Origin: a virus
Lineage: Duplodnaviria > Caudoviricetes
DNA: 64,000 nt
Virus record (IMG/VR): IMGVR_UViG_3300030330_006019
Span: 32,001 to 96,000 of that record
Reading direction: 5' to 3' (one strand)
Both the position numbers and the translations under genes were made by a program. The number at the start of each line of letters is the position of its first letter. The stretch's first letter is position 1. Under the pieces are notes generated by a model. It was not told the origin of the DNA and did no database searches. It worked only from the letters and a program-made list of their open reading frames with translations. Positions 19,259 to 42,566 of the stretch are shown one piece after another.

Positions 19259-19282
19259 AACTCTATTTCCTTTAATTTTATT

Positions 19283-19313
19283 TAATATAACAATTTTTCT
19301 TGAATAATAAAAA
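19283..19313 (-). promoter_or_regulatory. Class A promoter-like motif upstream of SIS-HAD gene
   Basis: Minus TTTTTATTATTCAAGAAAAATTGTTATATTA. Confidence 0.65.
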
Positions 19314-19318
19314 TTTTA

Positions 19319-20203: not shown

Positions 20204-20205
20204 TT

Positions 20206-20847: not shown

Positions 20848-20858
20848 AAAAACTTTCC

Positions 20859-21485: not shown

Positions 21486-21488
21486 AAC

Positions 21489-22019
21489 CTATTCTCCTTG
21501 TAAATTAATCTCATCTAAATTTTTTCCTGGTGGTTGTGTACCAATTGATGTATCAGTTTCTCCTGGCAAATATGCATCTAAAACATTTTTACTAAACTCA
21601 TAATTGACAACTCTAAGTGAATTAAAGTTGCCTATATTTAGTGTCCTATAACTATCACCTAATCTTGTTTTTGCAATTTTTCTAATTGCTGCTGCATAAA
21701 ACTGTTTAGGATTTTGTCCCACAATTAATTTTCTAAGCTTTACCTTTTTTGACTTATATGCTTCAGAATATTCTATTCCTTGTCCACCAGCAAATAAATT
21801 AAATGCATTTAATGGAATTAAGTCAAGTGACAATGCATGCATAACTCTTCTAAAATTTGGATTTAACACCAATAGTATATACTTTTTTGCACCACCCTTT
21901 TCCTTGCCTCTTGGTTGTTTTTTATAAACGGCTGAAATTATCATTCCAGGCTCCAACTGTGCAATTGATATTTGTTGTCCAGCTCCACATTTACTTAGAT
22001 GTTGTGAAAAGTATGACAT
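21489..22019 (-). CDS. Hypothetical basic phage protein
   Basis: 176-aa ORF, coupled to neighbours. Confidence 0.6.
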   Translation of the reverse strand: MSYFSQHLSKCGAGQQISIAQLEPGMIISAVYKKQPRGKEKGGAKKYILLVLNPNFRRVMHALSLDLIPLNAFNLFAGGQGIEYSEAYKSKKVKLRKLIVGQNPKQFYAAAIRKIAKTRLGDSYRTLNIGNFNSLRVVNYEFSKNVLDAYLPGETDTSIGTQPPGKNLDEINLQGE

Positions 22020-22474
22020 TACTTGGCTACACCCATTCTTTTACATGCGTCCATAAATTTATCACGTGGAAATCTTTCGGATAATTCTATTCCAAGTCTT
22101 GTTTTATAATACTCACCATCTCTTCCAGGAATTGGGTATTTTATTTGCTCACCTTTTTCAATCTGAACAACTGGTGAATATACCCATTCATAAGAATCTT
22201 TGGTTCCTTCTGGATATAGCATTGCATGCTCCATAACAATTGTTGTTAAATACCAGTATTGTCCTAAAAGCTTGTCTTCAAATCGTGTTGACGTAATTAT
22301 TTTAGGTGAACGAGATTCAAACTCTTCTACTTGTTTATTTCCAATTGTTAAATTACTATTTGTATTATACCCAGTGTCCATACACATTTTAGATATACCA
22401 GCTTTTTCATCTTTTTCAACTATAACTGATACTCTATTTGTAAAAGGACTTTTTTCTTTTAAGTCTGTACTCAT
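22019..22474 (-). CDS. Hypothetical phage protein
   Basis: 151-aa ORF, ATGA overlap with upstream GT. Confidence 0.6.
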   Translation of the reverse strand: MSTDLKEKSPFTNRVSVIVEKDEKAGISKMCMDTGYNTNSNLTIGNKQVEEFESRSPKIITSTRFEDKLLGQYWYLTTIVMEHAMLYPEGTKDSYEWVYSPVVQIEKGEQIKYPIPGRDGEYYKTRLGIELSERFPRDKFMDACKRMGVAK

Positions 22475-23745
22475 GATATTTTCTCCAATTTTGGTAATGT
22501 TATTTTAGGCATATTTAGTTGTACTTGCTGTGGTACATTAACATGCTTTTCCATTATTTCTGTAAATCTTTCTGTCATTTTATCTAGATTTAATTCTTCA
22601 CGAACAAGTCTTGCTTGTTTTCTTGCATCTGGAATATATTTTTTATATTTTTTATGTATATCCTTTAACACTTTTGATGCATATAGATGGTTTACATAGA
22701 ACCATTTAGAACCTTGAACAACTACATTTTCCCATTGTGCAGATTCATGTACTTCTTGCAATTCACCAGGTAAAAGAACTGAATGTTTTAGAAAATCTAT
22801 ATGTCCTGACCAGTTTGATGCTATTACTGGTTTTTGAGTTACACAAAATTCTGCAAGAGGTCTTCCATAACCTTCTCCATGTGTAAATGATAGCATGGCC
22901 TTTACCTTTGGATGATTGTATAAACTATTCATTTCTTCAGGTTCTAAATCTCCATGAAGTAAATATACATTAGGTAAACCTTCACCACACTGGTCTGCAA
23001 TAAGCTTAATTTTTCTAAGAATATTTTCTCTGTCTATTACACTAAATGTTGCTTGACTAGTTTTAAGTATCAATGCAGGTTTATTTGCTTTTCTCTTAAA
23101 TGTCTCAAAAAATGTTTTTAACATTCCAGCAACATCTTTTCTATCATGTCCAAAATTTCCATTTAGCCAATGTCCAACAAAAAGAAAACAAAAGTTTTCC
23201 TTAATATTTGATAATTCATCTGCAACTGTTTTTGAAATTTCAGATGTCTTATTCCATACTTTTGTATCAACACCTTCAAACAATACCTCCATTGGTACAG
23301 TTACTTTATGTTCACCTTCTTTTTTCTGAGTTTGATTGTTTATCTTGTCATAAACTGTTCTCAAAAATGATTCTTTTGAATGTTCAGATGTCACAATTAC
23401 TAAATTCATCCTATTCATTCCATCAACCCAAGGATGAGAAACATGTGTTGTTTCAATACCTGCAGTTATACCTATATTGTATTTACCAACTGGCTGAAAT
23501 TCATTAGGTACTGTAACCTGAATCCATATATCTGGTTGTTTTGGTAAATTTCCAAAGTGTAAAACATCTATAATATCCTGGTCATCTTTGCCAAGAGCAT
23601 TCATAGGGCATGAACCCCATCTTTGACTAAGTACTTTTATATCATACTTATCCATTGCTATCAAACTTCTCAATAAATCTCTAGCGTGGTCTCCATATCC
23701 TGAACGTGTCGCAACTGGTGCACTCATAACTAATAATGGTTTCAT
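22471..23745 (-). CDS. Glycosyltransferase family 4 (GT-B)
   Basis: SGYGDHAR, FLFVGHW, RKDV, GEGYGRPLAE, SGHIDFL. Confidence 0.88.
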   Translation of the reverse strand: MKPLLVMSAPVATRSGYGDHARDLLRSLIAMDKYDIKVLSQRWGSCPMNALGKDDQDIIDVLHFGNLPKQPDIWIQVTVPNEFQPVGKYNIGITAGIETTHVSHPWVDGMNRMNLVIVTSEHSKESFLRTVYDKINNQTQKKEGEHKVTVPMEVLFEGVDTKVWNKTSEISKTVADELSNIKENFCFLFVGHWLNGNFGHDRKDVAGMLKTFFETFKRKANKPALILKTSQATFSVIDRENILRKIKLIADQCGEGLPNVYLLHGDLEPEEMNSLYNHPKVKAMLSFTHGEGYGRPLAEFCVTQKPVIASNWSGHIDFLKHSVLLPGELQEVHESAQWENVVVQGSKWFYVNHLYASKVLKDIHKKYKKYIPDARKQARLVREELNLDKMTERFTEIMEKHVNVPQQVQLNMPKITLPKLEKIS

Positions 23746-23754
23746 TTTTTTCTC

Positions 23755-25212
23755 CTAAAAATTATGTCCTACTGGGTATTTTGGTTTTGGTTTTTGTGAG
23801 TCAATTAAAGTAAATCTTTTTCTAGGTTTCCAATGTTTCCAACAACTTTCAATTGAACGTTCAAATGCATTACACATTTCCTTTGCTGTAAATCCATTTT
23901 CAATTGCCCAGTCTCTTCCTTTCATACCTCTGGTTTTTAATTCATCTACTCCTAATCTATATGCTTTTTCAATTTGGTCTGTAACATCAGGTATATTACA
24001 TCTTGAATCATAAATGTATGGTGTAAGAGGTGAACCTTGTAAATTTATTTGTGGCCAAACAACAAATGACCATTCACCATGATTCTTATACCTACCATTA
24101 CTATTACTTGGCCAATCAGAATTATAATCTTCCAACTCTACATATTTTCCATCATCTTTAATAATACCTACTTGGTCTTGTAAACCTCCAATACAATTTA
24201 CTAAAACTGGTGTACCTGTCATAATTGATTCCATGCAACTTAAACCAAATCCTTCAGCAGAACTAATATTTGCACCTAAATCTGACATATTATACAAGTA
24301 GTTTAATTGTTTTGTTGTTAACTTAGCTTCACTAAATATCACATTATAATCTGGTAATAGTGCATCTTTTACAGCACCTAAATCAGTACCTGCATCATCT
24401 ACTTTATTTGTGTGTAATAACAAGTAACATTCATTTGCTTGTTCTTTTGTTAATCTATCACAAAATAGTTTATACGCTAACATTAAGTCAGATGTAGATT
24501 TTCTTCTAATATTTCTACTGTTATACATTACAACAAATCCTGGCGTAACACCTCCAAATATCTGATGTTCAAATTTAATCAATTCATTAAACTCTGGGTG
24601 ATCCTTTCCAATTGGATAGTATTCATCTGTTGGTATTCCGTGTTGTACATATGTTAAGTCTATACCTTTTCTTCTAGGATTCTTTTGGCAAACATTAAAA
24701 TTAATATTGTATGTTTGCTTTGATATTGCCATAAGTAAATCACATGAATCATAAAAAGGCTCATTCCAATGCGGATAAGGCAAATCATCCCAGATATTCA
24801 AATATCCTAATGGTATAGTTTGTCTTATTTCATGTTCCATTTGATAAAGCCACTGCCAGAACCTAGGGTCTGTAAAGTGAATAATTGCATCTGGTTTTTC
24901 TTGTGAAATTATATGTCTAACAATTTCTTGAGTACCATAACCTGAACATGGATATATTTTTACATCTGCATCATCTACTCCAGTTTCAGTTTTTACTTGG
25001 TCACTTATATCTAAAAGTTTTCCATTGTCTGGATGTTTTACTGCTCCTCCTAGTTGTACCCAGTCATATCTATCAACTGTTCCAAAAACTAAATTCTTTG
25101 ATACAGTTCCTACACCTGAATGCAATCTCATATCATCTGAAAGCAATAATATTTTTTTCTTTTTTGGCTTATTTGGGTCTACACTTCTTAATTTTGGTAA
25201 TTTGATTTCCAT
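23755..25212 (-). CDS. Glycosyltransferase family 4 (GT-B)
   Basis: HSGVG, RNIRRK, AEGFGLSCMES, GGLQDQ. Confidence 0.88.
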   Translation of the reverse strand: MEIKLPKLRSVDPNKPKKKKILLLSDDMRLHSGVGTVSKNLVFGTVDRYDWVQLGGAVKHPDNGKLLDISDQVKTETGVDDADVKIYPCSGYGTQEIVRHIISQEKPDAIIHFTDPRFWQWLYQMEHEIRQTIPLGYLNIWDDLPYPHWNEPFYDSCDLLMAISKQTYNINFNVCQKNPRRKGIDLTYVQHGIPTDEYYPIGKDHPEFNELIKFEHQIFGGVTPGFVVMYNSRNIRRKSTSDLMLAYKLFCDRLTKEQANECYLLLHTNKVDDAGTDLGAVKDALLPDYNVIFSEAKLTTKQLNYLYNMSDLGANISSAEGFGLSCMESIMTGTPVLVNCIGGLQDQVGIIKDDGKYVELEDYNSDWPSNSNGRYKNHGEWSFVVWPQINLQGSPLTPYIYDSRCNIPDVTDQIEKAYRLGVDELKTRGMKGRDWAIENGFTAKEMCNAFERSIESCWKHWKPRKRFTLIDSQKPKPKYPVGHNF

Positions 25213-26103: not shown

Positions 26104-26453
26104 TTTAGCAACCCCTCTTTTCTCATTTGTTTTCTAATTTTAGTTGCTGATATCTTTTCAACTTGTGTTGGAGGTACATGTTCGATAATTTCATATCCAA
26201 CACCTCTGCCATAATTAACAGATTCTATGTCTGGTATAATTACTACCTTTATACTTCCATTTGCAATTTCTTTTGAAAATCTTTTATTTAAGTTTTGCTC
26301 AACTTCTTGTGGTGTCCAAGGTTGATTTTCATTTGGTTCAACATCCCTAATTGCTATACATATATTTTTGCCTTCTTTAATTCTTTGGTCTATTAACCAT
26401 TGATGGCCATCATGCCAAGGTTGCCACCTTCCTATAAACATTGAGTATTTCAT
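26100..26453 (-). CDS. HIGH-superfamily nucleotidyltransferase (cytidylyltransferase-like)
   Basis: FIGRWQPWHDGH, YGRGVGY, ISATKIR. Confidence 0.85.
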   Translation of the reverse strand: MKYSMFIGRWQPWHDGHQWLIDQRIKEGKNICIAIRDVEPNENQPWTPQEVEQNLNKRFSKEIANGSIKVVIIPDIESVNYGRGVGYEIIEHVPPTQVEKISATKIRKQMRKEGLLK

Positions 26454-27208
26454 ATTCCTTTATCTCTTTGTAAATTTAATGCTATTGCCCTTTCACCAGG
26501 CTTATCAGGATCCATATCATTAATAAGATATCTTGGACCTCGCTCAATCCCCATTATTAATCTATCAAATGGTATGTAATTATTTACCAATTCATTGATA
26601 GTATGTTCTCTCATATCTTCAGGTCTTGCTGTTGTTAAAATTATCATATGACCATCATCATACCACTCATTTAATTTATCAACAGTTGAAATTATAGGTT
26701 CTGCATCTGAAGTTGTATATGTTTCAAATTTTCTATACTTAAAAATTGTTCCATCAATGTCACAAAAATATGTATGCTTCTTTTTTACATTAAATGATAT
26801 TTTGTCTAAACACTTTTCAATAGAAATATTTGTTGTGTCCATGTCAATAAAATTTTCTGTAGGCTTTTCATAATCTTTTGCAAAATAGTCTTCCCTACCT
26901 CTAGTTTCAGTTGTATGAACATATATTTCAGTTACATCATTTGTTGCCTTTAGTGAATCTCTCATTTCCTTATATGGAGCAACAACTGAAACAACAACTG
27001 TCAATCCTTTATTATCTAAGAATCTACATAAATCCAATACTGACTGTATATTCTTTGTTCTCCCAGCTGGGCTATAGTCGAAATTTTGAAATAAATCTCG
27101 CAAACCATCACCATCAATATGAATGCAATTATCACTACATTTTTCTATCATTGCTTTAGCTAATGTTGTCTTACCAGCACCTGGCTGGCCTGTAAACCAA
27201 TATATCAT
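26450..27208 (-). CDS. cysC: Adenylyl-sulfate kinase fused to C-terminal HAD phosphatase
   Basis: WFTGQPGAGKTT P-loop, IDGDGLR, VVAPY, YEKP; then FCDIDGT, LTTAR, RYLIND. Confidence 0.85.
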   Translation of the reverse strand: MIYWFTGQPGAGKTTLAKAMIEKCSDNCIHIDGDGLRDLFQNFDYSPAGRTKNIQSVLDLCRFLDNKGLTVVVSVVAPYKEMRDSLKATNDVTEIYVHTTETRGREDYFAKDYEKPTENFIDMDTTNISIEKCLDKISFNVKKKHTYFCDIDGTIFKYRKFETYTTSDAEPIISTVDKLNEWYDDGHMIILTTARPEDMREHTINELVNNYIPFDRLIMGIERGPRYLINDMDPDKPGERAIALNLQRDKGI

Positions 27209-30622: not shown

Positions 30623-33061
30623 TTAACTAACTAAACTCTCATATTGCTGCAATAAATTATCAACATTTCCAATTAATTTGAACTCTTCTAATTGTTCTAA
30701 AACTTGCTTTGAAAAATATGTTTCGTAATCTATTTCAAATATTTCTTTTCTATCATCTATTAAGTGTAAATCTTCTTCATTCAAACATATTGCAGTTTGT
30801 CGTTCTCTAATCTTAATATCATCTTCACATTTACTCTTTATATAAAATAAATAAGGTGCATCTAGGTTTGTAATTGTTGTACCTAGTTTTTCATTTGCCC
30901 ATAATGCAGCCTTTAAGTGTTGTGGTTTATTTTTTAAGTATTGGTTAAATCGTTTAGTAAACTTTTTAGATATTCCAATATCTTTATAATTGATTGTCTC
31001 TATCTTTTTTCTTAACTGGGTTAAATGCTCTATTTTCAAATTGTCACGTATTGCCATTTCAGTAACAACATTTAATGCCTTCTTAAGAAACTCTGGTGCA
31101 TCTTTTCTAATAATATTCATACCTCTAATATATTTTTTACCAGTATCTCTTATTATTGCATAGTACCTTTTCTTTGATTCACCAAAATAAATGTATTCTA
31201 AATCATATTCAAATTTAAGGTCCATCATCATATACTCATCTGAAACCTTAGGATTGTATTTTGCAACATATTCGTTTCTTAAGTCATCATTAAATTTAAC
31301 CAATTTGTCTTTCATTTGTGTTTCTGTACAACCATTTGACTTTACAAATATACTATCAGTATCACCATATAAAACTTTATGTTCTTGATTAAATTTTAAT
31401 GTTGCAAACTTTAATGCTTGTCTTGCAAAAAATGTAATTGCATCTGCACACTCTGGTTTATATAATCTAAAAAAGTTGAATCCCATAGCACCATAGGCTG
31501 AATTAAGAACTAACTTATATGCCCATTGTCTTTTGTCCATTGCAACTTTTTCATCACCTTTGTATTTTCCTTGACCAAGACCTTTATTTATTTCTACTCT
31601 TTGTAAAAATAACTTCTTTAGAATTTTAGGTAATAGTCCTACCTTATATGAATGGCCATAAAATAAATATCTTCCACCAAATAGAGTTTCATCTTCACCT
31701 GTATCAATAAAATCAGTATCTTCTTCCTTTAGCTTGTCAACTATTTCTTGTATATTCATACCCATATTGTCACATTGTTCCTTTGAACAAATAAATGTTT
31801 CTGGGCTAATATTGAATGACATAATACTTGTAGGATATAGTGATGTATAGTCCATAACAGTAACATCTTTATGTCTACCAGGTTCAGTAGGGTTAAATAC
31901 GATTGCACCTGCATAGTTTTTTCTAGGACGTGTTATCCTATTAGGAAATATAATTTTATTGTGATTATCTTTTAAGATATAACTATCAACAACAACGGAT
32001 TTGAAAAAACACATTGGCATTTGTTCTACACCACTAATTGATTGTAGAGTACAATATAAATCAAACAATTGTATCTTTTCATCTATTTCTTTTAGTATTT
32101 GTACATCACGTATACCATATTTTATAAATCCGTCAAAGTTATTTAACCAATCCTTCCAAGTAACCTCAGTGAGCTTTTCCATTTCACCTTCACCAAGTAT
32201 TTCTTTTGATGCAGTTGCAAGTTTCCAATTAGGAAGGTTGTAGTTCATATCTTGTAATGCTTCCATCATATCAACATGGTCTAATCCTCGTATATTGATT
32301 CTCCAATAATCTCCCTTTTTTCTCATGTAAATATCTTTAACTGGAGATATATCTTCATAAGGCAATCCTAATTTTTTACACCTATTGATAATGTATGGCA
32401 TATCAAATCCAGAACAGAACCAACCTGTTAGTACATCACAGTGACTGACATTTATAAGGTTTATGAAACCCATAATTACATCTTCTTCTGTTTTACACAT
32501 AACATATGTTGTACCATTTTCAGTATACATTTTTGGCTGTTCATATTGCTCAGTTAATTCTGGATGCCATGCAAATACAAAATACGATTTCTTTTCTGTT
32601 GAGTAACACTGAATTGATGTAATTGGTTGTTCAGCCCGTTCTGGCTTATTACTATCTGGGTTTTCCAAATCAACATGACACTCAATATCATAATACATTT
32701 TATGTCTTTTGTCTGACCATTCTAGGTTTTTATCTAACATAAACTTAAACTCTGGAGAAACATCTGCTTCATATGTTTTCATACCAAACTTTCTAGATAT
32801 TTCATTACGATTTTTTATTGAATTGTAATAAACTCTATTAACCTTTTCTCCATAAAAGCTATCATAAAATTGAGTGTCACTAAAGTCTAATCCATTGACT
32901 CCCATAATGTCTTCAATGTTATCGGCTGAATAATAGAAGTAGTCTCTTACCTTGTCAACCTTTGTGACAAACTTTCCATCTTCATCATAACCAAATTGAT
33001 AAATGTTCCACATTCCTTTGTCGAACCTTGATGTAATACGTGATATTTTGAATTTATTCAT
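30623..33061 (-). CDS. Family B DNA polymerase
   Basis: Exo motifs YYDIEC and FDMPY; Pol motifs DYTSLYP, KLVLNSAYG, YGDTDS, KKRY; start moved to MNKFKISR because the longer ORF overlaps the tRNA. Confidence 0.96.
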   Translation of the reverse strand: MNKFKISRITSRFDKGMWNIYQFGYDEDGKFVTKVDKVRDYFYYSADNIEDIMGVNGLDFSDTQFYDSFYGEKVNRVYYNSIKNRNEISRKFGMKTYEADVSPEFKFMLDKNLEWSDKRHKMYYDIECHVDLENPDSNKPERAEQPITSIQCYSTEKKSYFVFAWHPELTEQYEQPKMYTENGTTYVMCKTEEDVIMGFINLINVSHCDVLTGWFCSGFDMPYIINRCKKLGLPYEDISPVKDIYMRKKGDYWRINIRGLDHVDMMEALQDMNYNLPNWKLATASKEILGEGEMEKLTEVTWKDWLNNFDGFIKYGIRDVQILKEIDEKIQLFDLYCTLQSISGVEQMPMCFFKSVVVDSYILKDNHNKIIFPNRITRPRKNYAGAIVFNPTEPGRHKDVTVMDYTSLYPTSIMSFNISPETFICSKEQCDNMGMNIQEIVDKLKEEDTDFIDTGEDETLFGGRYLFYGHSYKVGLLPKILKKLFLQRVEINKGLGQGKYKGDEKVAMDKRQWAYKLVLNSAYGAMGFNFFRLYKPECADAITFFARQALKFATLKFNQEHKVLYGDTDSIFVKSNGCTETQMKDKLVKFNDDLRNEYVAKYNPKVSDEYMMMDLKFEYDLEYIYFGESKKRYYAIIRDTGKKYIRGMNIIRKDAPEFLKKALNVVTEMAIRDNLKIEHLTQLRKKIETINYKDIGISKKFTKRFNQYLKNKPQHLKAALWANEKLGTTITNLDAPYLFYIKSKCEDDIKIRERQTAICLNEEDLHLIDDRKEIFEIDYETYFSKQVLEQLEEFKLIGNVDNLLQQYESLVS

Positions 33062-33067
33062 ATAGTA

Positions 33068-33098
33068 TAATATAACTAATTTTTTTGATATATAAAAA
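33068..33098 (-). promoter_or_regulatory. Class A promoter-like motif upstream of polB
   Basis: Minus TTTTTATATATCAAAAAAATTAGTTATATTA. Confidence 0.65.
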
Positions 33099-33103
33099 TT
33101 ATT

Positions 33104-33180
33104 TGGGTGGTAAATGAGAATCGAACTCACAACCTTTGGAACCACAATCCAGTGCTCTAACCTATTGAGCTATTACCACC
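33104..33180 (-). tRNA. tRNA-His (GUG)
   Basis: Minus strand GGTGGTAATAGCTCAATAGGTTAGAGCACTGGATTGTGGTTCCAAAGGTTGTGAGTTCGATTCTCATTTACCACCCA folds as a cloverleaf with anticodon GTG and the G-1:C73 identity pair. Confidence 0.93.
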
Positions 33181-33371: not shown

Positions 33372-33459
33372 ATTGTAACCATTTTGATTTATATAATAAA
33401 TATAACTATTTTTTCCTAATTAATGCTATGTTTTTTATAAAGTTATTAACAACTTAATG

Positions 33460-33825: not shown

Positions 33826-33919
33826 AGTATTATCAATTATTTATATATAAATATAACTAGAATTGTTGGGAAAAAAAAATATTTTCACAGTTATTTTTAC
33901 TAAAATATGAAAAAAGTTA

Positions 33920-34147
33920 TTAACAAGGATTGTTTACATAGTATTCTATGAGATTTATTATCTTTTCTGCATCAGAATCATCACATTGTTTATAACTTTT
34001 TCCCATTTTACTTTTAATTCTTTCAAAAATATGTGCATATGAATTTCTTCCTTTTGGGTGGAAGCGGTGAGGAGGTAATTTACCTTTTAGTTCATCACCT
34101 GCCTTTATAGCTGCTTCATATATTATCTTTTGAACCTCTGGTGACAT
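33920..34147 (-). CDS. Hypothetical protein
   Basis: 75-aa ORF (HPKGRNSYAH) directly after the methyltransferase. Confidence 0.65.
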   Translation of the reverse strand: MSPEVQKIIYEAAIKAGDELKGKLPPHRFHPKGRNSYAHIFERIKSKMGKSYKQCDDSDAEKIINLIEYYVNNPC

Positions 34148-34148
34148 A

Positions 34149-35372
34149 TTAAAATAACGATGTCTGTAATGATTCTTGAATAATCTTTTGATTTGTATTG
34201 TCTTGTTTTACAAAGAAACCATCAGCAGTTGGTAATTCACCATTTATATATTTTACAACTTGTTCAGTCATATCTCTTGCAGTACATGTAGGTACATTTT
34301 GTGCAATATGATTTACTTGCTTTACGTCTTCAATTACAAAGTCATGTGGTAGTCCCATTAGGTGTAAAAATTCTCTAACATTCAAATACCTATTTTCTGT
34401 TGGATGTACACCATTAAACATGTTCCTACCAATTAGTGCATTAAACGATTTACTAAAAATATGAGGTGAACTATCCCAATATCCTAGTCCCATTGACCTC
34501 TTTTTTAATACATGTTCTAACATACTAATAAATGTATTTGTTCCATTCTTTTTACTAAACCCTTCAGTTGGATAATATTTTTTTAACCAATCAATACATT
34601 CATGTACAAGGTCATATTTTTCAAGGTATTGATATAATGTTCCATGATTCCACCATTCAACAAATTCTTTATGAGTTTTACCTTCTCGTTCAAGAATAAA
34701 TTGGTATGGCTTAAAGTGTTCAGTTACAGAACCTGGTACCATAAACATATCTTGACAACTTGCATTTTTTGGTACCTCTAATAAATAATCTGCTAGTGAT
34801 TTACAATCTCTCTTATACCAATCAAATATAGGAGGCTTAGTACCTTTCCAAAAAAAGTAAAATGTTCTCATTCTTCTTTGTGGTATACCATGTAACTCTG
34901 TATTTGTCTTAATCATTGAAAAACTATAATCATATTCTTTTCCAATTGTCTTTAGTTTTTCTACAACACCTTCACCAAGTTTAGTAAATAGTCCAGGTGC
35001 ATTTTCTCCCCATAAAACTTTTGGCTTATAGTTTTCTAAAATTACCCTTGTAGATTTATACATCCATTCATTTTGTGCTGCATCACTACCTCTCTTATTT
35101 ATACTTCCTTCAATAGCAGATGAATTCAACATTGACAATCCTGCACAAGGACATACACTATTTACAAAATCAAGCTTACCTAAATCAGGAGTATTTCCTT
35201 CATCCAAAACATGATAAGGTACATCTGGCCAATGTCTTCTAATGTGACTTTCATTGGATGCAAATGGACTATATGTTAAATGTCCTACTGGTTGATTTTT
35301 TGTTGTCATACTGCAACCTACTGCACTACCACCAATAAGTGGTATTATTGTTGCCCATTTTATTTCGCTCAT
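34149..35372 (-). CDS. DNA cytosine-C5 methyltransferase-like protein with atypical motif I
   Basis: Motif I IIPLIGG, IV CPCAGLS, VI GENAPGL, VIII PQRRMR, IX RYLNVRE..LMGLP, X IAQNVP. Confidence 0.85.
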   Translation of the reverse strand: MSEIKWATIIPLIGGSAVGCSMTTKNQPVGHLTYSPFASNESHIRRHWPDVPYHVLDEGNTPDLGKLDFVNSVCPCAGLSMLNSSAIEGSINKRGSDAAQNEWMYKSTRVILENYKPKVLWGENAPGLFTKLGEGVVEKLKTIGKEYDYSFSMIKTNTELHGIPQRRMRTFYFFWKGTKPPIFDWYKRDCKSLADYLLEVPKNASCQDMFMVPGSVTEHFKPYQFILEREGKTHKEFVEWWNHGTLYQYLEKYDLVHECIDWLKKYYPTEGFSKKNGTNTFISMLEHVLKKRSMGLGYWDSSPHIFSKSFNALIGRNMFNGVHPTENRYLNVREFLHLMGLPHDFVIEDVKQVNHIAQNVPTCTARDMTEQVVKYINGELPTADGFFVKQDNTNQKIIQESLQTSLF

Positions 35373-36640
35373 ATTCTAACTCCTATATTTGTGTTTGCTA
35401 ACGATGTATTTACAATGTCATATACAAATGAACCATCTGTAACATTTTTAATTAAATTTTGTTGTAATAGATTAACCAATTGTATTCTCTTTTCAGGAAC
35501 TTCATCTAAAAATTTCATTTTGTCATAAAAATCTTGAGGACTTGAAACCCTACAGAAATGATTAAGAGGTAAAACATTTCCTTGAGTGTCGTATGTTGGA
35601 TGGAAAAAAGGTACAACACCCATCATAAGTACTTCAGCATATTTACTTGTTACCCAGTCAGGTCCTATTGGAATTACAAGAGTATATCGTGTATCCTTAA
35701 ACTTTTCATCTATTTCAGCTGGTGTAACATATCCCTTAAATTGTGGGTAACCATCTGTAAAGTGTTCTTTCCATTTACCATATATTTCAACTTCTTGGTC
35801 TGTATCACGGTCAAGAATCCATTCTTTTATTGCATCAAATCTTTTATCCTTTGTTGCTTGACCTGTTACACTCTGCATTGCTACAATTGTAAACTTTGTA
35901 TTTCTAGTTATACTAGGTTTTATAATTTTTTCATCTACAAGATTAAGCTTTTCAATTCCACTATATCTTACATTAATTGTTTTGTCCTCAAATTCAGCAT
36001 CATTTCTGTATTCCTTTAAGCTATGCCAAATACTTGTTGTATTATACTGTGCAATTATTTCTTTTGGATAATTTACAGTATCTTTTGCCTTAAATATTGG
36101 TTTAGTATATCTAGGGTCTGTACATATCATATACCAAGGAAGGTCTGATTTATTTAGATAGTGAACAATTGGTGAAGAATAATTATATGTCATACCTAGA
36201 AGTTTTACCTTTGAACTAGGGTCTCTTACACCATCTAAGAAATTAGGTATAACATTGTTTGTCATATATCCTGGTCCAATAAATCCTAAACCAAAATCTG
36301 GTTTTGTTTCATCATGATTTAGATATTCATCAAGTCTTTGGTAATTTAGAGTCAATTGCATATCCTGGCCCTTATCTGGTCTTATATCTTTTGGGTCAAG
36401 TTCATCATAGATATATCTTAAAACTCCACGTGGGTCATATTCTTGCTTTTCAAACATATCAAGTTTTCCCCAATCACTCTTTTGTATAATAAGTACCTCC
36501 CCAATTTTTGGATTAGAACATAGTGATTTTATAAGTTTATAATACTCATTAGTACCATCGGCACGTTTAAGATTCTTTTTTACAAATTTAATTGCACCAC
36601 CTAATACAAAGATAGCGACTTTAATGTTGTCAGTTTTCAT
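35369..36640 (-). CDS. GT-B glycosyltransferase resembling T4 DNA beta-glucosyltransferase
   Basis: CTDPR, IYGKW, FKGYV...EK...WVTSKYAE...YDTQ...FCRVSSPQDF recalls the BGT C-terminal pattern; lies in dCMP-modification cluster; start at MKTDNI. Confidence 0.7.
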   Translation of the reverse strand: MKTDNIKVAIFVLGGAIKFVKKNLKRADGTNEYYKLIKSLCSNPKIGEVLIIQKSDWGKLDMFEKQEYDPRGVLRYIYDELDPKDIRPDKGQDMQLTLNYQRLDEYLNHDETKPDFGLGFIGPGYMTNNVIPNFLDGVRDPSSKVKLLGMTYNYSSPIVHYLNKSDLPWYMICTDPRYTKPIFKAKDTVNYPKEIIAQYNTTSIWHSLKEYRNDAEFEDKTINVRYSGIEKLNLVDEKIIKPSITRNTKFTIVAMQSVTGQATKDKRFDAIKEWILDRDTDQEVEIYGKWKEHFTDGYPQFKGYVTPAEIDEKFKDTRYTLVIPIGPDWVTSKYAEVLMMGVVPFFHPTYDTQGNVLPLNHFCRVSSPQDFYDKMKFLDEVPEKRIQLVNLLQQNLIKNVTDGSFVYDIVNTSLANTNIGVRI

Positions 36641-38213
36641 ATGTAAATTCCTCATATATTAAATTCATGGCTCTTAACCAAAATGCTTTACATCTTTCTG
36701 GGTTATCTTGGTGAAAAGGTATACAAGTTAAAAATAACATTATTGCAAGTCTCTTAACATTTCCTATATCATAACCATACTCGTTCATTTTAATTAACAT
36801 ATTAACCAATATCTTGTTTTGCTTTTCCTCATCCCAATGAAGTATTACCTTTGAACCTTCAATGTGATATCTTCCAGAAACTATCATCATGTATCCACAA
36901 TACCAATCATGTAAAAGTTTACCCATATCATACTGTGCGTCACCAGAAAACTTTGACATTCCAAAATATCCCCTAGGGTCTAGTAACTTAATTCTACCAT
37001 TGTGACTATTAAATAACATATTTCCTAAATGTAAATCACCATGAATTCTTTCACTCCACTTTGATGTCTGTAATAACTTTAGGCCTGATTGTTTTATAAA
37101 TTTCTTTGCAGTGTCTATACCTATAAAGTCATTATACATTTCACTATCCAGCCTGTCCATGTTTTTTTGAATATACATTTCATAGCAGTCTGAAAGTTTT
37201 TCCTTTCCTAGTTTATAAAACACTTTGTGATATATATCAAGTATTGAATTTGTAACACCTATCCATGTATCAGCATTCATTCTTTCATATAGCCAAACTT
37301 CATTTAGTGGAGTACCGGCTTCCCATGACATTTTCATTTCGCCATGTTGTGAATCCAAAATTTGTGGTACAAATAATCGCTGAGTATCATTTAATGTATT
37401 AAACCAATTCTTTTCTTTCTCTATCTTAAGTGCTTTATCACCAGTTGCCTTTTTGGTAATTGTACCTAAAAATGTATCTATCTCAAGTGTATTAAACTCT
37501 CTAGATGAACCTTGCATTAGACGGGCTGTTGATTCATAATATGTTTTTAATTCACCACAATCATACCATTCCGTAGTATCTAATAATTCAAAATTAGGTA
37601 TGTAATTAAGATATTCTGATAGTAATGCTGCTATTTGGTGTTCACCTTTATGTTGAGGTTGATTCATTCCTTTCTTAATAGAATCATTAAACCATTTTCT
37701 ATTGTTAAAATAATATAGACCTATAAGTGCAGAATCTGTAGGTACATCATTATCAGGTTTGTCATAAAATGTTTTACCATTACTATCAACTAAGCACCAT
37801 CTAGATTTTTGTTCAACCTTTGATACTCCTAAAAATCCTGGACTATTAAAGTTTAATTCGTCACGGCAAATTGTATCACCTAACCAAATCAATACAGAAT
37901 TGTCTTTTTTTGTTGATTTTTTCCATCCAACCTCAATTGCATGTAGTGGCCCTTTTGGATTTTTTTGTTCAACAAACTTAAATGTATTTTCAATAAATGA
38001 ATATGTAGATTTAACAAATTCACTAATATCATGTAATTTATTTTCAACAATGATTATTTCATTTACATTATGATATTGTAATAATTCATCTAAGATATAT
38101 GAAATAATAGGTTTACCACAAACAGGTATCATTGCCTTTGACATGTTACTTGAAAGTGGCCTCATTCTTGTTGCCAAACCGGCTGCTGGTATTATTACTG
38201 ATATATTAGTCAT
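36630..38213 (-). CDS. Sugar-phosphate nucleotidyltransferase fused to APH/choline-kinase-like phosphotransferase
   Basis: IIPAAGLATRMRP...K, WLGD, WYDCG (NTP transferase); IHGDLHLGN, LLDPRG, YDMGKL (kinase). Confidence 0.85.
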   Translation of the reverse strand: MTNISVIIPAAGLATRMRPLSSNMSKAMIPVCGKPIISYILDELLQYHNVNEIIIVENKLHDISEFVKSTYSFIENTFKFVEQKNPKGPLHAIEVGWKKSTKKDNSVLIWLGDTICRDELNFNSPGFLGVSKVEQKSRWCLVDSNGKTFYDKPDNDVPTDSALIGLYYFNNRKWFNDSIKKGMNQPQHKGEHQIAALLSEYLNYIPNFELLDTTEWYDCGELKTYYESTARLMQGSSREFNTLEIDTFLGTITKKATGDKALKIEKEKNWFNTLNDTQRLFVPQILDSQHGEMKMSWEAGTPLNEVWLYERMNADTWIGVTNSILDIYHKVFYKLGKEKLSDCYEMYIQKNMDRLDSEMYNDFIGIDTAKKFIKQSGLKLLQTSKWSERIHGDLHLGNMLFNSHNGRIKLLDPRGYFGMSKFSGDAQYDMGKLLHDWYCGYMMIVSGRYHIEGSKVILHWDEEKQNKILVNMLIKMNEYGYDIGNVKRLAIMLFLTCIPFHQDNPERCKAFWLRAMNLIYEEFTYEN

Positions 38214-38430
38214 CTGTTGTCATCCATACTTCTCTACTATCAGGGTCACTACCTATAACAACTTCTTCGCAATCTGACTTACAGACTGCAACAACTGTTC
38301 CAAAATCACTACCTGATATAAACTTTGCTGTATAATATTCTCCAAAGTCATTTATTACTTCAAATACATCACCAACTTTATATTTGGAATACTGATATTT
38401 ATCGTTTGTACTATTTGTTCTTATTATCAT
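38206..38430 (-). CDS. Small hypothetical protein
   Basis: 74-aa ORF within cluster. Confidence 0.55.
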   Translation of the reverse strand: MIIRTNSTNDKYQYSKYKVGDVFEVINDFGEYYTAKFISGSDFGTVVAVCKSDCEEVVIGSDPDSREVWMTTDD

Positions 38431-38443
38431 AACTATTATTCAA

Positions 38444-38821
38444 TTAGTATGGAAGGTCTAAATTTATGTTACCTATTCCTTCAGTATCTCGTTTAAGATT
38501 TATTGCAAAGGCAGTTGCCTCCCTTCCATTTTTTTTCATATCATTTATTAAGTATCTTGGGCCACCACCAAATCCCATTATCAATTGGTCATAAACTATT
38601 CCAGCCTCAGCAAGTTGACGCTCTGTTTGGTTTTTCATACACAATCTTCTACCAGTTGTTAAAATTATATTGTAGCCTTTTCTTTCCCACTCCAATAATT
38701 TTTCAATCGTTCCTGGCAATACCTCCATTTTATTATATGGAGATGTTGCTTCTGATGGTGACATGTGCTTTACTAGCGTACCATCTATATCACAAAATAT
38801 TGTTTTAGGTCTATTATCCAT
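38444..38821 (-). CDS. Minimal HAD-family phosphatase
   Basis: IFCDIDGTL, ILTTGR, PRYLIND. Confidence 0.85.
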   Translation of the reverse strand: MDNRPKTIFCDIDGTLVKHMSPSEATSPYNKMEVLPGTIEKLLEWERKGYNIILTTGRRLCMKNQTERQLAEAGIVYDQLIMGFGGGPRYLINDMKKNGREATAFAINLKRDTEGIGNINLDLPY

Positions 38822-39258
38822 TATTGTATCCCAGTACTACCAAATCCACCTGTTCCTCTGGTTGAATCAGAGTTATACAAGTTAGATTCGTCTACTTCTT
38901 CTAAATTAGGTGGTCCTAATGGCAATAAAACAAACTGAACTATTTTATCACCTGGATTGATATACACAGTATTCTTTCCATAATTAAATAAGTGTATATG
39001 TACCTCTCCTTGATAACCACAATCAACAACACAAGCTCCAACTTGCAATTCACGAATAGTTGCAATTCCAGATTTATTAAATGCTATTAAAGCATAACCC
39101 TCAGGTACATCAACTTTAATACCAGATGGAATTAGACACTTTTCATTTGACCTTAATTCGGTTACAACCATATCATTTGGTACAAAAAAGTCAATACCAG
39201 CATCTGTTGGATTTGCCCGTGTTGGTGTTTTTACATCTCTTACTTTTGAAAACTTCAT
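38821..39258 (-). CDS. dut: Trimeric dUTPase
   Basis: DAGIDF, KSG, VVDCGYQGE, KIVQ, RGTGGFGSTG; start moved to MKFSKV with GGAG RBS. Confidence 0.93.
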   Translation of the reverse strand: MKFSKVRDVKTPTRANPTDAGIDFFVPNDMVVTELRSNEKCLIPSGIKVDVPEGYALIAFNKSGIATIRELQVGACVVDCGYQGEVHIHLFNYGKNTVYINPGDKIVQFVLLPLGPPNLEEVDESNLYNSDSTRGTGGFGSTGIQ

Positions 39259-39440
39259 TTTACAATCTCCTCTTTTTCTCTTGCCTTTATATCGCATTCA
39301 GCCAACACATCACCAATCACTTTTTTACTTGATGGAGAAAGTTCGCCATACTCCAATTTACTCAATGCGTTTTGTAAAGCAACCTTAACCCAAGCTTTTT
39401 TATAAGTTGGATTCCATTTACGTACTAATTTTTTAGCCAT
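39255..39440 (-). CDS. Small hypothetical protein
   Basis: 61-aa ORF coupled to neighbours. Confidence 0.55.
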   Translation of the reverse strand: MAKKLVRKWNPTYKKAWVKVALQNALSKLEYGELSPSSKKVIGDVLAECDIKAREKEEIVK

Positions 39441-39717
39441 TATCTTTTTCCTTTATATAGTTATCTAATCCTCCTAAATATGCAACTGCATCTAATAAAT
39501 TATCTTCTCTATAATTATATGAGTGTCTAGATAATTTTAGTGCAATTAATGCAGCATACATATCTTCTGCTACAAAATCCTTTCCAGTCATGCCACTTGC
39601 GATTTTAGCCGCACGTTCCATTCCTTCACTAAAAGGTCCATACTGTCTTTCCTTTTCTTCAGAGCGATTGTTTATTATACCATCTGCCCTTTTAAGTATT
39701 GATTCTTTCTTTTTCAT
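39433..39717 (-). CDS. DUF6378-like protein
   Basis: SILKRA..I...RQYG...LKLSR...DNLLDAVAY pattern. Confidence 0.75.
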   Translation of the reverse strand: MKKKESILKRADGIINNRSEEKERQYGPFSEGMERAAKIASGMTGKDFVAEDMYAALIALKLSRHSYNYREDNLLDAVAYLGGLDNYIKEKDNG

Positions 39718-40583
39718 ATAAATAATTTTTTACTAATATCATTTGCATATTCACCAATCTGTTCTTTTGTCATATCTTTTTCTGGTAAATACATCTTGTT
39801 TTGTTGTATATAATCTAATGTTACATGGTCATTTAACTTATAATACTTTCCATAGTATTCTGTGTCTTCACTATCAATTGATAAAATATTATGTGCCATT
39901 TCATTATGCATTTCATATAGGTGTAAACTTCCTGCATGGTGATAATATGAACCAAGTTCTAAATCTGGGTATACAGTTTTTAATTCATTATACATTAATT
40001 GTTGAAATAAACAAAATATGAAAATATCATTTGACATTCCAAAAATAATATCATTACTTCTCATACTTACACCCATATGAAGTTTATTATTTCTTATAAA
40101 AAACTGCAAGTATTGTGTACATGGTATATCGTTTGGATTTTTTGTTTTATGATATGGTTGTCCTATAACAAATGTTGCACGTCGACTATCTTTATCTTTT
40201 GTCAATTCATTTACAGACCAGTTCCATTGATTTCCAAAAACATAACAGCCATAATTTGATTCTACATTATCTTCACCATCCTTTATGTTTAACCAAATTC
40301 TTGCAAATTTACCAATATTTGTTGCATTAGGATTTCTTGACAAATACCAAAGAAATTCTGCTAACGTATATGTTTCATTAAATTTTCTACTTGGCCACCA
40401 AATACCTAAATCTGTCGGGTTGTCTATAACAAAACTTCTAAATAAAACTTCTTTTTGGTTTGTTCCACGACTTTGTACAGTGTTTGTTTGATTTACAATA
40501 TTTTGTAATTCCCAGTAAAATGCTTCATGTAAATTTGTATATCTACCTGTTTCTATTTTTGGTACTGACCAGTATTTTCTCAT
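39714..40583 (-). CDS. Thymidylate-synthase-superfamily dCMP hydroxymethylase-like enzyme (T4 gp42-like)
   Basis: EFLWY, VESNYG, DSRRA, PCT, MRSNDIIFGMSND (Asp at the dCMP-specificity position), GSLHLY. Confidence 0.8.
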   Translation of the reverse strand: MRKYWSVPKIETGRYTNLHEAFYWELQNIVNQTNTVQSRGTNQKEVLFRSFVIDNPTDLGIWWPSRKFNETYTLAEFLWYLSRNPNATNIGKFARIWLNIKDGEDNVESNYGCYVFGNQWNWSVNELTKDKDSRRATFVIGQPYHKTKNPNDIPCTQYLQFFIRNNKLHMGVSMRSNDIIFGMSNDIFIFCLFQQLMYNELKTVYPDLELGSYYHHAGSLHLYEMHNEMAHNILSIDSEDTEYYGKYYKLNDHVTLDYIQQNKMYLPEKDMTKEQIGEYANDISKKLFI

Positions 40584-40613
40584 AATGTGTAACCTGTTTT
40601 AATTTATTTAATC

Positions 40614-40645
40614 TAATATAACAAAAATTATTGGGATAAAAAAAT
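40614..40645 (-). promoter_or_regulatory. Class A promoter-like motif upstream of dCMP-hydroxymethylase-like gene
   Basis: Minus TTTTTTTATCCCAATAATTTTTGTTATATTA. Confidence 0.65.
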
Positions 40646-41482
40646 ATTTTTAGAGATTTTTTTGTCATCAATGTAATATTCTCTAAGTTCATTACAACGA
40701 ATCAAAACCTTGCCTAAACTCATACCTAGATTCCATTGTGAATGTATACCTAATAAATCAAACTTTCTAAATGAATTTAATCTTAAATTATCCAATATTT
40801 GTATTGTATTATTTGAATCTATGACTTTATTTTCATCTATTGATTTTTCATGTATTTTTCTCATTGCATAATATATAACATTTTCACCAGAATATATCTT
40901 TTTGTAATATGGTTTTCCAATACTATATACAACATCAAAAATTTGGTTCATTCCACCAACTTCTGAATTTTTACAAATGTATTGATAGCCTTCAACAAAT
41001 TCACTAACATCTGGTTTAATGTCTCTTAAATTGTGACACCACAATACCCTATCATAATTTTCTAAATCATCTAAATTTTCTAATGTTGATTTTATATTTA
41101 CATGTTTCAATAAAACATCTTTTAGAAATTGTAAACTCTCAAATGCTGACAAATCATTTATAGATATATAATTTACCTCATGTGACAAATTATCAATATA
41201 GCTTTTTTCTACTACTGACTTTCCTCTTGTATGTATACACCATATATTTACAAATGTATCATCAAATTTTGCTGAAAGCTTTCCACGATTATCAAAACAA
41301 CACTTAAATGATTTAATTGAAAAATCTAACTTTAATTCTTTAAGAATATCAATAACCGATACTGTTGTTGGTATATGCGTATAGTCTTCAATGATTTTTG
41401 AGTTATAATTATATAAATCTAAATCCTTAAATATATACGATGCAAAAAGTGCTGTTAAATTATTTCCAACTATACACTTCAT
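40628..41482 (-). CDS. Hypothetical protein, possibly a degenerate FAD-dependent oxidoreductase
   Basis: N-terminal CIVGNNLTAL resembles an eroded GxGxxG; C-terminal LLGIHSQW resembles LLGRxAxW. Confidence 0.45.
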   Translation of the reverse strand: MKCIVGNNLTALFASYIFKDLDLYNYNSKIIEDYTHIPTTVSVIDILKELKLDFSIKSFKCCFDNRGKLSAKFDDTFVNIWCIHTRGKSVVEKSYIDNLSHEVNYISINDLSAFESLQFLKDVLLKHVNIKSTLENLDDLENYDRVLWCHNLRDIKPDVSEFVEGYQYICKNSEVGGMNQIFDVVYSIGKPYYKKIYSGENVIYYAMRKIHEKSIDENKVIDSNNTIQILDNLRLNSFRKFDLLGIHSQWNLGMSLGKVLIRCNELREYYIDDKKISKNIFLSQ

Positions 41483-41484
41483 AA

Positions 41485-41673
41485 CTAATCTATGATTTTA
41501 ACTGTAAAGGATTTTAGGCCTTTATATTTCATATCACTCATTGCATTACATAATACGTACTGTACATTTCTTTCAATTGTATTATGTCCATCATTGTCCA
41601 CTATGACCTCTTTCATAGCAGGGCCTGAATTTAATTTAACAGGTTGAGAAAATTTTATCTTTACACTTTTCAT
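41485..41673 (-). CDS. Small hypothetical protein
   Basis: ORF coupled to cysteine synthase stop. Confidence 0.55.
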   Translation of the reverse strand: MKSVKIKFSQPVKLNSGPAMKEVIVDNDGHNTIERNVQYVLCNAMSDMKYKGLKSFTVKIID

Positions 41674-42566
41674 AAGCAACTAAAATACCTTTCACCTCTA
41701 TCACAAAGGATTGTTATTGCATGTTTACAATCATTGTCTCTTAACCATTCAAATGCTGCCTTAACATTTGCACCTGCACTTATTCCTACAAACAGTCCAA
41801 ACCTATGTGCTAAATGGCGTGCTACTTTTCTTGCACAATTTGTATGTACTGTTTTTATTTCAGTAATTTTTTGCAAATCAACTAGAAATTTACTACCATC
41901 TCCAATACCTTGTATTCCATGAAGTCCTGCTTCACCACCTGACATTACTGCTGACTCTTCTGGTTCAACTGCTACTAAATTCATTCCTGGATAATGTTCT
42001 CTAAGATATTTTCCACAACCCATTATTGTTCCGCCTGTACCTGTTCCTGCTACAAATGCTTGTGGCCAACCTATATTTTGATCAAGTTGTTGTCTAATTT
42101 GTTTTTCTATTTCTGGTCCAGTATTTTTATAGTGTGCTTCAATGTTCAAGGGGTTATGAAATTGATTACAATTGAACCAACCCATCTTTTCACACATTTC
42201 ATCTCTTACCCGTATTGCATTGTCAAAGTCACCTTCCTTAACTTCTATCAAATGAGCACCATAAAACTTCATCATTCGTTTTCTTTCTTCAGACATATTT
42301 GAAGGCATAATGATTGTCATTTGATAACCTCTCTCTGCTGCTAACATAGCAAAAGCAATTCCTGTATTTCCAGAAGTTGCTTCACAAAGTACATCACCTT
42401 TTCTTATTAGATTATTATTTTCTGCATGGTTCAGTATATGAGTTGCCATTCTGTCTTTAACAGAACCGCCAGGATTCATAAATTCACATTTACCCCAAAC
42501 TGTATAACCACCCATTGTAATTGGTATCAATGGTGTATTTCCTACATAACTACTTAACATTTTCAT
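41670..42566 (-). CDS. cysK: Cysteine synthase (O-acetylserine sulfhydrylase) family
   Basis: VGNTPL, NPGGSVKDR, EATSGNTG, NQFHNP, GTGTGGT, HGIQGIG, CDRGERY. Confidence 0.92.
   Translation of the reverse strand: MKMLSSYVGNTPLIPITMGGYTVWGKCEFMNPGGSVKDRMATHILNHAENNNLIRKGDVLCEATSGNTGIAFAMLAAERGYQMTIIMPSNMSEERKRMMKFYGAHLIEVKEGDFDNAIRVRDEMCEKMGWFNCNQFHNPLNIEAHYKNTGPEIEKQIRQQLDQNIGWPQAFVAGTGTGGTIMGCGKYLREHYPGMNLVAVEPEESAVMSGGEAGLHGIQGIGDGSKFLVDLQKITEIKTVHTNCARKVARHLAHRFGLFVGISAGANVKAAFEWLRDNDCKHAITILCDRGERYFSCL

Follow-up and report, generated by a model that had tools for sequence, protein, structure and literature searches.

A viral operon predicted to make hydroxymethylcytosine and to glycosylate it with a phage-made nucleotide sugar

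Whether a phage genome can be cut by restriction enzymes, CRISPR nucleases and type IV systems depends on the hypermodification of its DNA, and such modifications have repeatedly been a source of epigenetic-sequencing tools. Which modified base, then, would be made by an operon in which a thymidylate synthase (TS) homolog, sugar-activation genes, a glycosyltransferase (GT) and a C5-cytosine DNA methyltransferase (MTase) lie side by side? We addressed this question for such an operon in a 64,000-nucleotide (nt) stretch of DNA from an uncultured, low-GC caudoviricete virus, called the window below (positions 32,001 to 96,000 of IMGVR_UViG_3300030330_006019, a 105-kb viral record rated 42% complete). 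The answer we favour, with a probability of roughly two in three, is a two-stage hypermodification, in which hydroxymethylcytosine (hmC) would be made before replication and would then be glycosylated, after replication, with a nucleoside diphosphate (NDP)-sugar produced by the phage itself. We infer every activity in this scheme from homologies, signature residues, fold and gene linkage. The genes concerned, assigned with Pfam, PHROGs and NCBIfam, and the element that precedes them are as follows (aa, amino acids; ORF, open reading frame).

39714..40583, minus strand: TS-superfamily enzyme, predicted dCMP hydroxymethylase, that is, 5-hydroxymethyl-dCMP (5hmdCMP) synthase (289 aa; Pfam Thymidylat_synt, 1.3e-14)
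39433..39717, minus strand: four-helix DUF6378 protein that recurs between TS and dUTPase genes (94 aa; Pfam DUF6378, 2.3e-9)
38821..39297, minus strand: trimeric dUTPase-family pyrophosphatase (158 aa; Pfam dUTPase, 5.4e-22; NCBIfam dut, 5.3e-28)
38444..38821, minus strand: small HAD phosphatase, candidate AfhF-like sugar-bisphosphate phosphatase (125 aa; DxDGT motif, weak HAD Pfam matches)
38206..38430, minus strand: 74-aa ORF with no Pfam or PHROG match and with an ortholog in contigs L021 and L002
36630..38213, minus strand: AfhE-like fusion of NTP_transferase and APH kinase (527 aa; Pfam NTP_transferase, 3.1e-21, plus APH)
35369..36655, minus strand: GT-B glycosyltransferase resembling the T4 beta-glucosyltransferase (BGT), predicted DNA hmC glycosyltransferase (428 aa; weak Glyco_trans_1_2)
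34149..35372, minus strand: C5-cytosine DNA methyltransferase-family enzyme (407 aa; Pfam DNA_methylase, 3.4e-14)
33920..34147, minus strand: 75-aa ORF with no family match, kept in L002 and L021, the last gene before the next promoter-like motifs
40611..40650, minus strand: promoter-like element, an extended -10-like TGTTATATT plus an upstream T-rich/CCCAA box, 30 nt before the TS start

The nine genes are co-oriented from 40583 to 33920, and most overlap a neighbour: junctions overlap, mostly by 1-26 nt, or leave 1-13 nt, and a single gap of ~135 nt precedes the dUTPase gene. An earlier note on this DNA, made from its letters without database searches (the original prediction), had listed seven of these genes in this order and placed the end of the run close to polB; all of its genes were found where it put them, on the minus strand, and a tRNA-His gene followed by the family-B polymerase PolB (30623-33145) lies downstream.

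The TS homolog and the predicted base

The best matches of the TS homolog in the Protein Data Bank (PDB) were MilA (5e-21) and T4 gp42 (2.5e-18), with ThyA at about 1e-8; both cytosine hydroxymethylases thus outrank ThyA by at least 10 orders of magnitude, and identity to gp42 is about 27-29%. In alignment A1 and a 25-sequence panel, the signature of the TS homolog reads DIPC, MRSND and GMSND. Its equivalents in alignment A1 are DFMC, MRSND and GFRND in T4 gp42, and EYPC, MRSQN and MQLD in the Mosigvirus enzyme. The catalytic Cys (ThyA C146) is present, DIPC being aligned with T4 DFMC; the ThyA N177 position is occupied by Asp (GMSND versus T4 GFRND), and the ThyA L143 position, three residues before the Cys, also carries an acidic residue, Asp.

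Published rules (E. coli ThyA numbering) read N177D as a sign of dCMP as the substrate, L143D/E as a sign of a non-methyl product and D169N as diagnostic of 5-hydroxycytosine (5hoC) synthases (PMC13326640). Phages RB69 and DLP3 make 5hoC, not hmC, by means of a flavin-binding TS homolog (Lee et al. 2026, PMC13326640), and the RB69 base is arabinosyl-5hoC, derived from a TS homolog of this flavin type with D169N (PMC13326640). The window enzyme does not have the D169N of these 5-hydroxy-dCMP (5hodCMP) synthases (RB69 gp48 / DLP3 gp80 type), as it reads RSND where the Mosigvirus homolog reads RSQN. Its gp42-like residues (DIPC/MRSND/GMSND) therefore lead us to predict a 5hmdCMP synthase, rather than a 5hodCMP synthase or a dCMP methylase. 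The cytosine specificity claimed by the original prediction is supported by the precedence of MilA and gp42 over ThyA and by the Asp at N177; the peptides that it quoted from the TS homolog, MRSNDIIFGMSND and VESNYG, are present, and its reading of T4 gp42, MRSNDVVFGFRND, was confirmed. No second TS-family gene was found in the 80%-complete relative described below, and a dCMP deaminase gene is present elsewhere in the genome.

The neighbouring dUTPase-family protein displays all five dUTPase motifs; its ortholog in L002 has 145 aa, and its true start is probably Met14, at 39258. The AlphaFold2 model of the DUF6378 protein (pLDDT 78.5) gave no meaningful match in fold comparison. In the first stage that we propose, at the level of nucleotides and before replication, the TS homolog would convert dCMP to 5hmdCMP, and the adjacent dUTPase-family enzyme, which may both supply dCMP/dUMP and exclude dCTP/dUTP, would probably feed and clean the nucleotide pool. 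Kinases from elsewhere would raise 5hmdCMP to the triphosphate, which phage PolB would incorporate.

A different enzyme was encountered in the Cyanophage S-TIM61/S-TIM5 group (contig L005), where a 30%-identical MTase lies near a ThyA with GVPLD (Asp at the N177 site), RSND and, instead of an acidic residue, Cys at the L143 site. Under the residue rules above, this combination of Asp and Cys points to a dCMP methylase and not to a hydroxymethylase.

Activation and transfer of the sugar

The 527-aa fusion carries both domains of the AfhE architecture, an N-terminal nucleotidylyltransferase and a C-terminal APH/choline-kinase-like kinase. It aligned over 98% of its length to AfhE-type proteins of Mosigvirus that are annotated as hypothetical (~22% identity), and it shares 28.7% identity (2e-53) with its counterpart in Pseudoalteromonas phage vB_Psh_XG4 (XG4). 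The PDB matches of the N-terminal domain were LicC, UGPases, RmlA and MurU; LicC, MurU and RmlA/UGPases are also the solved relatives reported for RB69 gp52:53. BLASTP of the 125-aa HAD protein against the 128-aa gp51/AfhF-type protein of Mosigvirus returned nothing, and the link was recovered by profile comparison only, with a five-sequence HAD profile matching this protein at an hhalign probability of 97.9% (E 3.3e-13). The HAD protein also gave a weak match to PDB 1xpj.

In the Afh system, AfhE phosphorylates arabinose-5-phosphate (Ara5P) at C1, AfhF strips the 5-phosphate and AfhE then yields UDP-arabinose, a route that runs from Ara5P through Ara1,5P2 and Ara1P to UDP-Ara (PMC13326640). 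The most economical reading of the homologies above is that the same logic, from sugar phosphate to bisphosphate, sugar-1-phosphate and NDP-sugar, would apply to this operon, and our leading guess for the activated sugar is a pentose such as arabinose. In the second stage, which concerns DNA after replication, the AfhE-like fusion would phosphorylate a sugar phosphate at C1, the AfhF-like HAD protein would take off the distal phosphate, and the nucleotidyltransferase domain would then make the NDP-sugar. The GT-B enzyme would finally move the sugar onto the hydroxymethyl group of hmC in DNA.

The AlphaFold2 model of this GT, based on 26 homologs (pLDDT 89, pTM 0.89), is that of a GT-B enzyme. 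When it was compared with the PDB by Foldseek, ranks 1-6 were all T4 BGT, which was the top structural match by two comparison methods; sequence identity to BGT is about 16%, and the lead of BGT in these comparisons of a modelled fold is modest but consistent. Searching the GT family profile against PDB sequences gave nothing significant, BGT being found by structure comparison alone, and BLASTP revealed no similarity to the Mosigvirus GT. The family comprises 264 proteins, all unnamed and all viral or metagenomic; in one homolog (P0173), the GT is joined to a Choline_kinase domain. From the fold and the gene linkage, we infer that the acceptor is hmC in DNA.

These results bear on several proposals of the original prediction. 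A phage-encoded kinase/nucleotidyltransferase/phosphatase route to an NDP-sugar is supported by the AfhE-type alignment and the AfhF profile match, and a T4 BGT-like GT by the Foldseek ranks. The parallel that it drew with RB69 arabinosylation stands for the sugar-activation genes (98% alignment; HAD 97.9%) and is not expected to extend to the base, as Asp169 is kept here and RB69 makes 5hoC; given this difference, the operon would combine a base of T4 type with a sugar logic of RB69 type and would not simply reproduce the RB69 cluster. It had also called the cluster self-contained, a description that finds no support here: genes for a sugar-phosphate isomerase, a dNMP kinase and a dCTPase were not recognized within the operon. 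The non-glucose sugar and the undescribed final base that it proposed are kept here as conjectures. The combination of a T4-type base, RB69-type sugar activation and a BGT-like transferase suggests three exchangeable cassettes.

The methyltransferase and the distribution of the module

Motifs IV, VI, VIII, IX and X of the MTase are intact (PCAGLS, GENAPGL, PQRRMRTF, REFLHLMGLP and QNVP). Motif I reads IPLIGG instead of the canonical FxGxG, a variant that is kept subfamily-wide, and the acidic residue of motif II (NE) is present. The subfamily comprises 3191 matches, mostly marine, across which PLxGG, PCAGLS, GENAPGL, QxRxR and QNVP are invariant.

To describe the company of this MTase, we surveyed 80 IMG/VR loci that contain the subfamily (L021-L100) with the window proteins as queries. 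A BGT-like GT lies 1-3 kb upstream on the same strand in 52 of the 80 loci; among the 28 loci without it, 10 end within 1.1 kb upstream of the MTase. A TS homolog was found in 24 loci, the TS-DUF6378-dUTPase triad in 11 and the AfhE-like fusion in 8. The largest group has no TS nearby; in each of its four searchable contigs, a divergent TS was nevertheless present at a distance of 30-60 kb. The gp42 signature is shared by all TS proteins identified in MTase-bearing records. The sugar kits near the MTase vary by lineage and include bacillosamine-like genes (dehydratase, aminotransferase and acetyltransferase), LicD plus a nucleotidyltransferase, or inositol-1-phosphate synthase with an HMUDK-like protein. 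The methylase stays constant beside a sugar slot that different kits fill in related phages, and this apparently active enzyme keeps strict company with predicted hmC synthases.

What would an MTase do in such a pathway? Our best guess, and the weakest step of the proposal, is that it methylates the cytosines that escape replacement, so that no unmodified cytosine would be left; incomplete exclusion of dCTP followed by methylation of the leftover cytosine would explain why the MTase co-occurs with the module. A bolder version is that the final base is a chemically undescribed glycosylated hmC, for example pentosyl-hmC obtained via an Afh-like route, and that the MTase homolog is an obligatory and hitherto unrecognized third component of hmC-type hypermodification; we consider this conjunction possible and distinctly doubtful. 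Under it, the MTase would methylate all escaping cytosines in phages without a dCTPase or would perform a new hmC-directed reaction at the replication fork, a pair of roles that we put forward just as tentatively.

Several further features of the subfamily were noted. The window MTase ends in QTSLF and the TS homolog in KKLFI; in the 80 related loci, the MTase homologs have a variable linker followed by a terminal ..K.LF, ..KSII or ..NSTF, and many GT homologs end in ..K(S/K)LF. The MTase and TS tails resemble sliding-clamp-binding tails, which would place both enzymes at the replication fork. MTase homologs of 600-670 aa with ~46-52% identity (P0040 and P0079) occur in eukaryotic transcriptome data, and P0079 has a zf-CXXC domain. 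Another cassette with the same MTase subfamily was found on a 242-kb contig (L014; JGI 3300012952) and in L068-L072 and L076: it consists of PolIII-alpha, TS-DUF6378-dUTPase, inositol-1-phosphate synthase, a Methyltransf_21 protein and a 484-aa protein with a weak HMUDK_hel match, followed by the MTase, an epimerase, TK and dCMP deaminase. This cassette is without a BGT-like GT and may install a different group on a hydroxymethyl pyrimidine.

The whole operon recurs in close relatives. A 170.8-kb IMG/VR contig (G001, 80% complete) is collinear with the window record (G000) at about 88-96% protein identity, and the near-identical contig L002 has a collinear operon. A second correction to the original prediction is that the cluster is widespread, the same module being present in XG4, in Enterococcus phages of the genus Denvervirus and in many IMG/VR contigs. 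In XG4 the order is TS(234)-HAD(131)-fusion(559)-GT(414)-GT(368)-MTase(405), with 26-35% identity to the window proteins and 35% for the MTase. Enterococcus phage Planchet (Denvervirus, with 9183 and TJE4) encodes kinase-TS-dUTPase-HAD-fusion-GT. XG4 and these Denvervirus phages thus share with the window a gp42-signature TS, HAD, fusion and GT in the same order, and XG4 shares the MTase too; XG4 differs in having a second GT and, where the dUTPase would stand, a weak PRA-PH-like pyrophosphatase, and the Enterococcus phages differ by the absent MTase and the upstream kinase. The XG4 cluster is without a dUTPase gene, and its PRA-PH-like ORF, just downstream of the methylase, is a sub-threshold match, as is a weak P-loop kinase-like ORF immediately upstream of its TS. 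Two metagenomic contigs, L019 and the P0235 contig, have the order HAD-fusion-x-GT-GT25-MTase-x-x-TS. Among isolates, the TS homolog gave its best match in Lactobacillus phage ATCCB, where the order is TS-'beta-glucosyltransferase'-UDP-galactopyranose mutase. A DNA-level search of the operon against isolate phages returned one short dUTPase match only. The module is therefore available in the cultured phages XG4, Planchet and 9183 (with the MTase in XG4), and our literature search found no paper on the DNA chemistry of these three.

Comparison with characterized systems places the operon between them. It shares with the T4 system for hmC and glucosyl-hmC (gp42, gp56 dCTPase, gp1 kinase, alpha- and beta-glucosyltransferases) the gp42 signature of the TS, a GT fold nearest to BGT, a location in the replication region and a dCMP deaminase gene elsewhere in the genome. 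Unlike T4, which uses host UDP-glucose, the sugar donor here is apparently phage-made; a trimeric dUTPase-family enzyme takes the place of the dCTPase (no MazG-type enzyme was found), no gp1-type kinase was identified, and a C5-MTase and a DUF6378 protein are additional. The Afh system of RB69, HY126 and DLP3 (PMC13326640) likewise combines an AfhE-type fusion and an AfhF-type HAD protein with a TS homolog, GT-B transferase(s) and a DNA polymerase. It differs in that the TS homolog here keeps Asp169, which predicts hmC rather than 5hoC, that the operon has no arabinose-5-phosphate isomerase, thymidylate kinase (TMK)-like kinase or gp50-like protein, and that its GT is BGT-like, not GT4-like, and is accompanied by a C5-MTase. 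With the MT/5mYOX (TET)/GT clusters (Pyle et al., bioRxiv 10.1101/2023.12.21.572611), the operon has in common a C5-MTase that adjoins a DNA-type GT, whereas no 5mYOX/TET gene was detected here and a pre-replicative TS route would be used instead. The same 2023 survey lists uncharacterized ThyS-associated GT-B contigs with methyltransferase, epimerase and APH phosphotransferase neighbours (10.1101/2023.12.21.572611).

Weighing of alternatives, and the surroundings of the operon

A number of points speak against the two-stage reading. The D169 rule comes from one paper, which tested positives and not a broad Asp169 set (PMC13326640), and ~22% identity to AfhE cannot carry over donor specificity. 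No arabinose-5-phosphate isomerase (PF01380) was found in the window's own record, in G001 or in XG4; there is only a weak GmhA-like SIS domain, at 18290-19258 in a separate operon, and Ara5P could be supplied by a Gram-negative host. GT-B folds are mutually similar, and BGT is ahead by just 2-3 Z units. Searches for MazG, MazG-like and PRA-PH pyrophosphatases and for a thymidylate-kinase-type kinase found none in the own record or the close relative, records whose completeness (42% and 80%) keeps these absences, and those of the isomerase and of a TET/JBP dioxygenase, from being proof. In the absence of a MazG-type dCTPase and a dedicated dNMP kinase, complete replacement of cytosine is not assured, and a catalytically intact C5-MTase is itself hard to square with full substitution at C5.

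Could these genes be explained otherwise? The sugar genes and the GT may act off DNA, on a virion protein, a host envelope polymer or a small molecule, with the TS homolog and MTase alone giving hmC and 5-methylcytosine (5mC). Indeed, many more genes for glycosylation lie in the window (GT2, GT4, a sulfotransferase, a KdsB-like enzyme and nonulosonate genes), the GT has no base-modification gene beside it in some 65% of phage GT contigs, and the acceptors of GT-B enzymes are of many kinds. We nevertheless consider this explanation unlikely, given that the top structural match of the GT is BGT, a DNA hmC transferase, that the gene sits inside a nucleotide-metabolism operon beside PolB, that its linkage to a DNA methyltransferase and a gp42-type TS extends over many lineages, and that many GT homologs share ..K.LF C-terminal tails with the DNA methylase. 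Only slightly less credence is due to the idea that the fusion activates a non-sugar or a hexose (CDP-choline/ethanolamine of LicC/LicA type, or an amino sugar of MurU/AmgK type), so that the appended group would not be a pentose. LicC, a CTP:phosphocholine cytidylyltransferase, is the best N-terminal PDB match (1.7e-8), the C-terminal domain is APH/choline-kinase-like, P0173 carries its Choline_kinase domain, and related phages hold quite different sugar kits in the same slot; yet the AfhE-type proteins of RB69 and DLP3 give the same LicC/MurU/APH matches, HY126 AfhE is reported to make UDP-arabinose (PMC13326640), the co-conserved AfhF-like phosphatase suits a bisphosphate route, and NDP-sugars are the donors of GT-B enzymes.

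The other two alternatives concern the base, and both appear improbable. A straight Afh system of RB69/HY126 type, with a flavin-dependent 5hodCMP synthase and arabinosyl-5hoC as the final base, would account for the AfhE-like and AfhF-like genes, and the TS homolog shares N177D and the acidic L143 residue with 5hoC synthases; the retained Asp169 makes this very unlikely in our view. We give still less weight to a post-replicative, methylase-first route, in which the C5-MTase would form 5mC, an oxidase would convert it to 5hmC for the GT, and the TS would serve nucleotide supply only. In its favour, the MTase gene adjoins the GT gene and is translationally coupled to it, the largest group of related loci has the pair with no TS close by, and MT-5mYOX-GT pathways exist. 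However, no Tet_JBP (PF12851) match was obtained at E<=0.1 in G000, G001 or XG4, a TS with the gp42 signature was present in another part of the contig in all four tested loci that have none nearby, and the window TS has cytosine-hydroxymethylase residues that would be needless for dTMP supply.

Returning to the two-stage operon, its transcription may be directed by the promoter-like element before the TS gene. The combination of TGTTATATT with a preceding T-rich/CAA box was found in at least eight short intergenic gaps immediately upstream of gene blocks. In the window, 15 copies of GTTATATT were counted, where shuffled sequence gave 8.0 +/- 2.8, and the coding strand carries 13 of them. This phage-specific motif was recognized by inspecting intergenic gaps, as a generic sigma-70 promoter scan of the window was not above chance. 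The motif that the original prediction placed at the head of the run is thus real as a recurring element, with a putative promoter function. No copy was found between 33857 and 40615, the flanking copies being at 40615 and 33850, which fits a single transcription unit; a further promoter-like motif past the last operon gene, besides that at 33850, is at 33399. About 10 sites in the window (54092, 49791, 40615, 33850, 33399, 28141, 19284 and 12916 among them) have a T-rich stretch and a TTGTCAA/CCCAA box followed by TGTTATATT, and the motif comes before most minus-strand gene blocks.

Elsewhere in the window, a minus-strand run at 14842-25212 contains more glycosylation genes: a GT2, a KdsB-like cytidylyltransferase, a short-chain dehydrogenase/reductase, a cupin, an MptE/Maf-like protein, the weak GmhA-like SIS protein, a sulfotransferase, another GT2 and two GT4 enzymes. 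Their products may extend the DNA glycan or act on virion proteins. The sole P-loop kinase candidate in the window, at 26450-27208 (minus strand), gave a full-length match to a polynucleotide kinase family (phrog_505, residues 2-220, 5.6e-13) and has the layout of T4 Pnk, a P-loop kinase plus a HAD phosphatase. This match replaces its identification as a fusion of adenosine 5'-phosphosulfate (APS) kinase and HAD, and together with the Pnk layout it makes a proposed 3'-phosphoadenosine 5'-phosphosulfate (PAPS) pathway doubtful. Downstream of the operon, the tRNA-His gene (GTG anticodon, 33105-33179) overlaps the program-called GTG start of the PolB ORF, whose actual start is probably further downstream. 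Just upstream of the operon promoter lie a 284-aa protein without a family match (40628-41482, minus strand) and a full-length cysteine synthase (41670-42566, minus strand; CysK/CysM-like, 1.6e-89) beside a class II ribonucleotide reductase.

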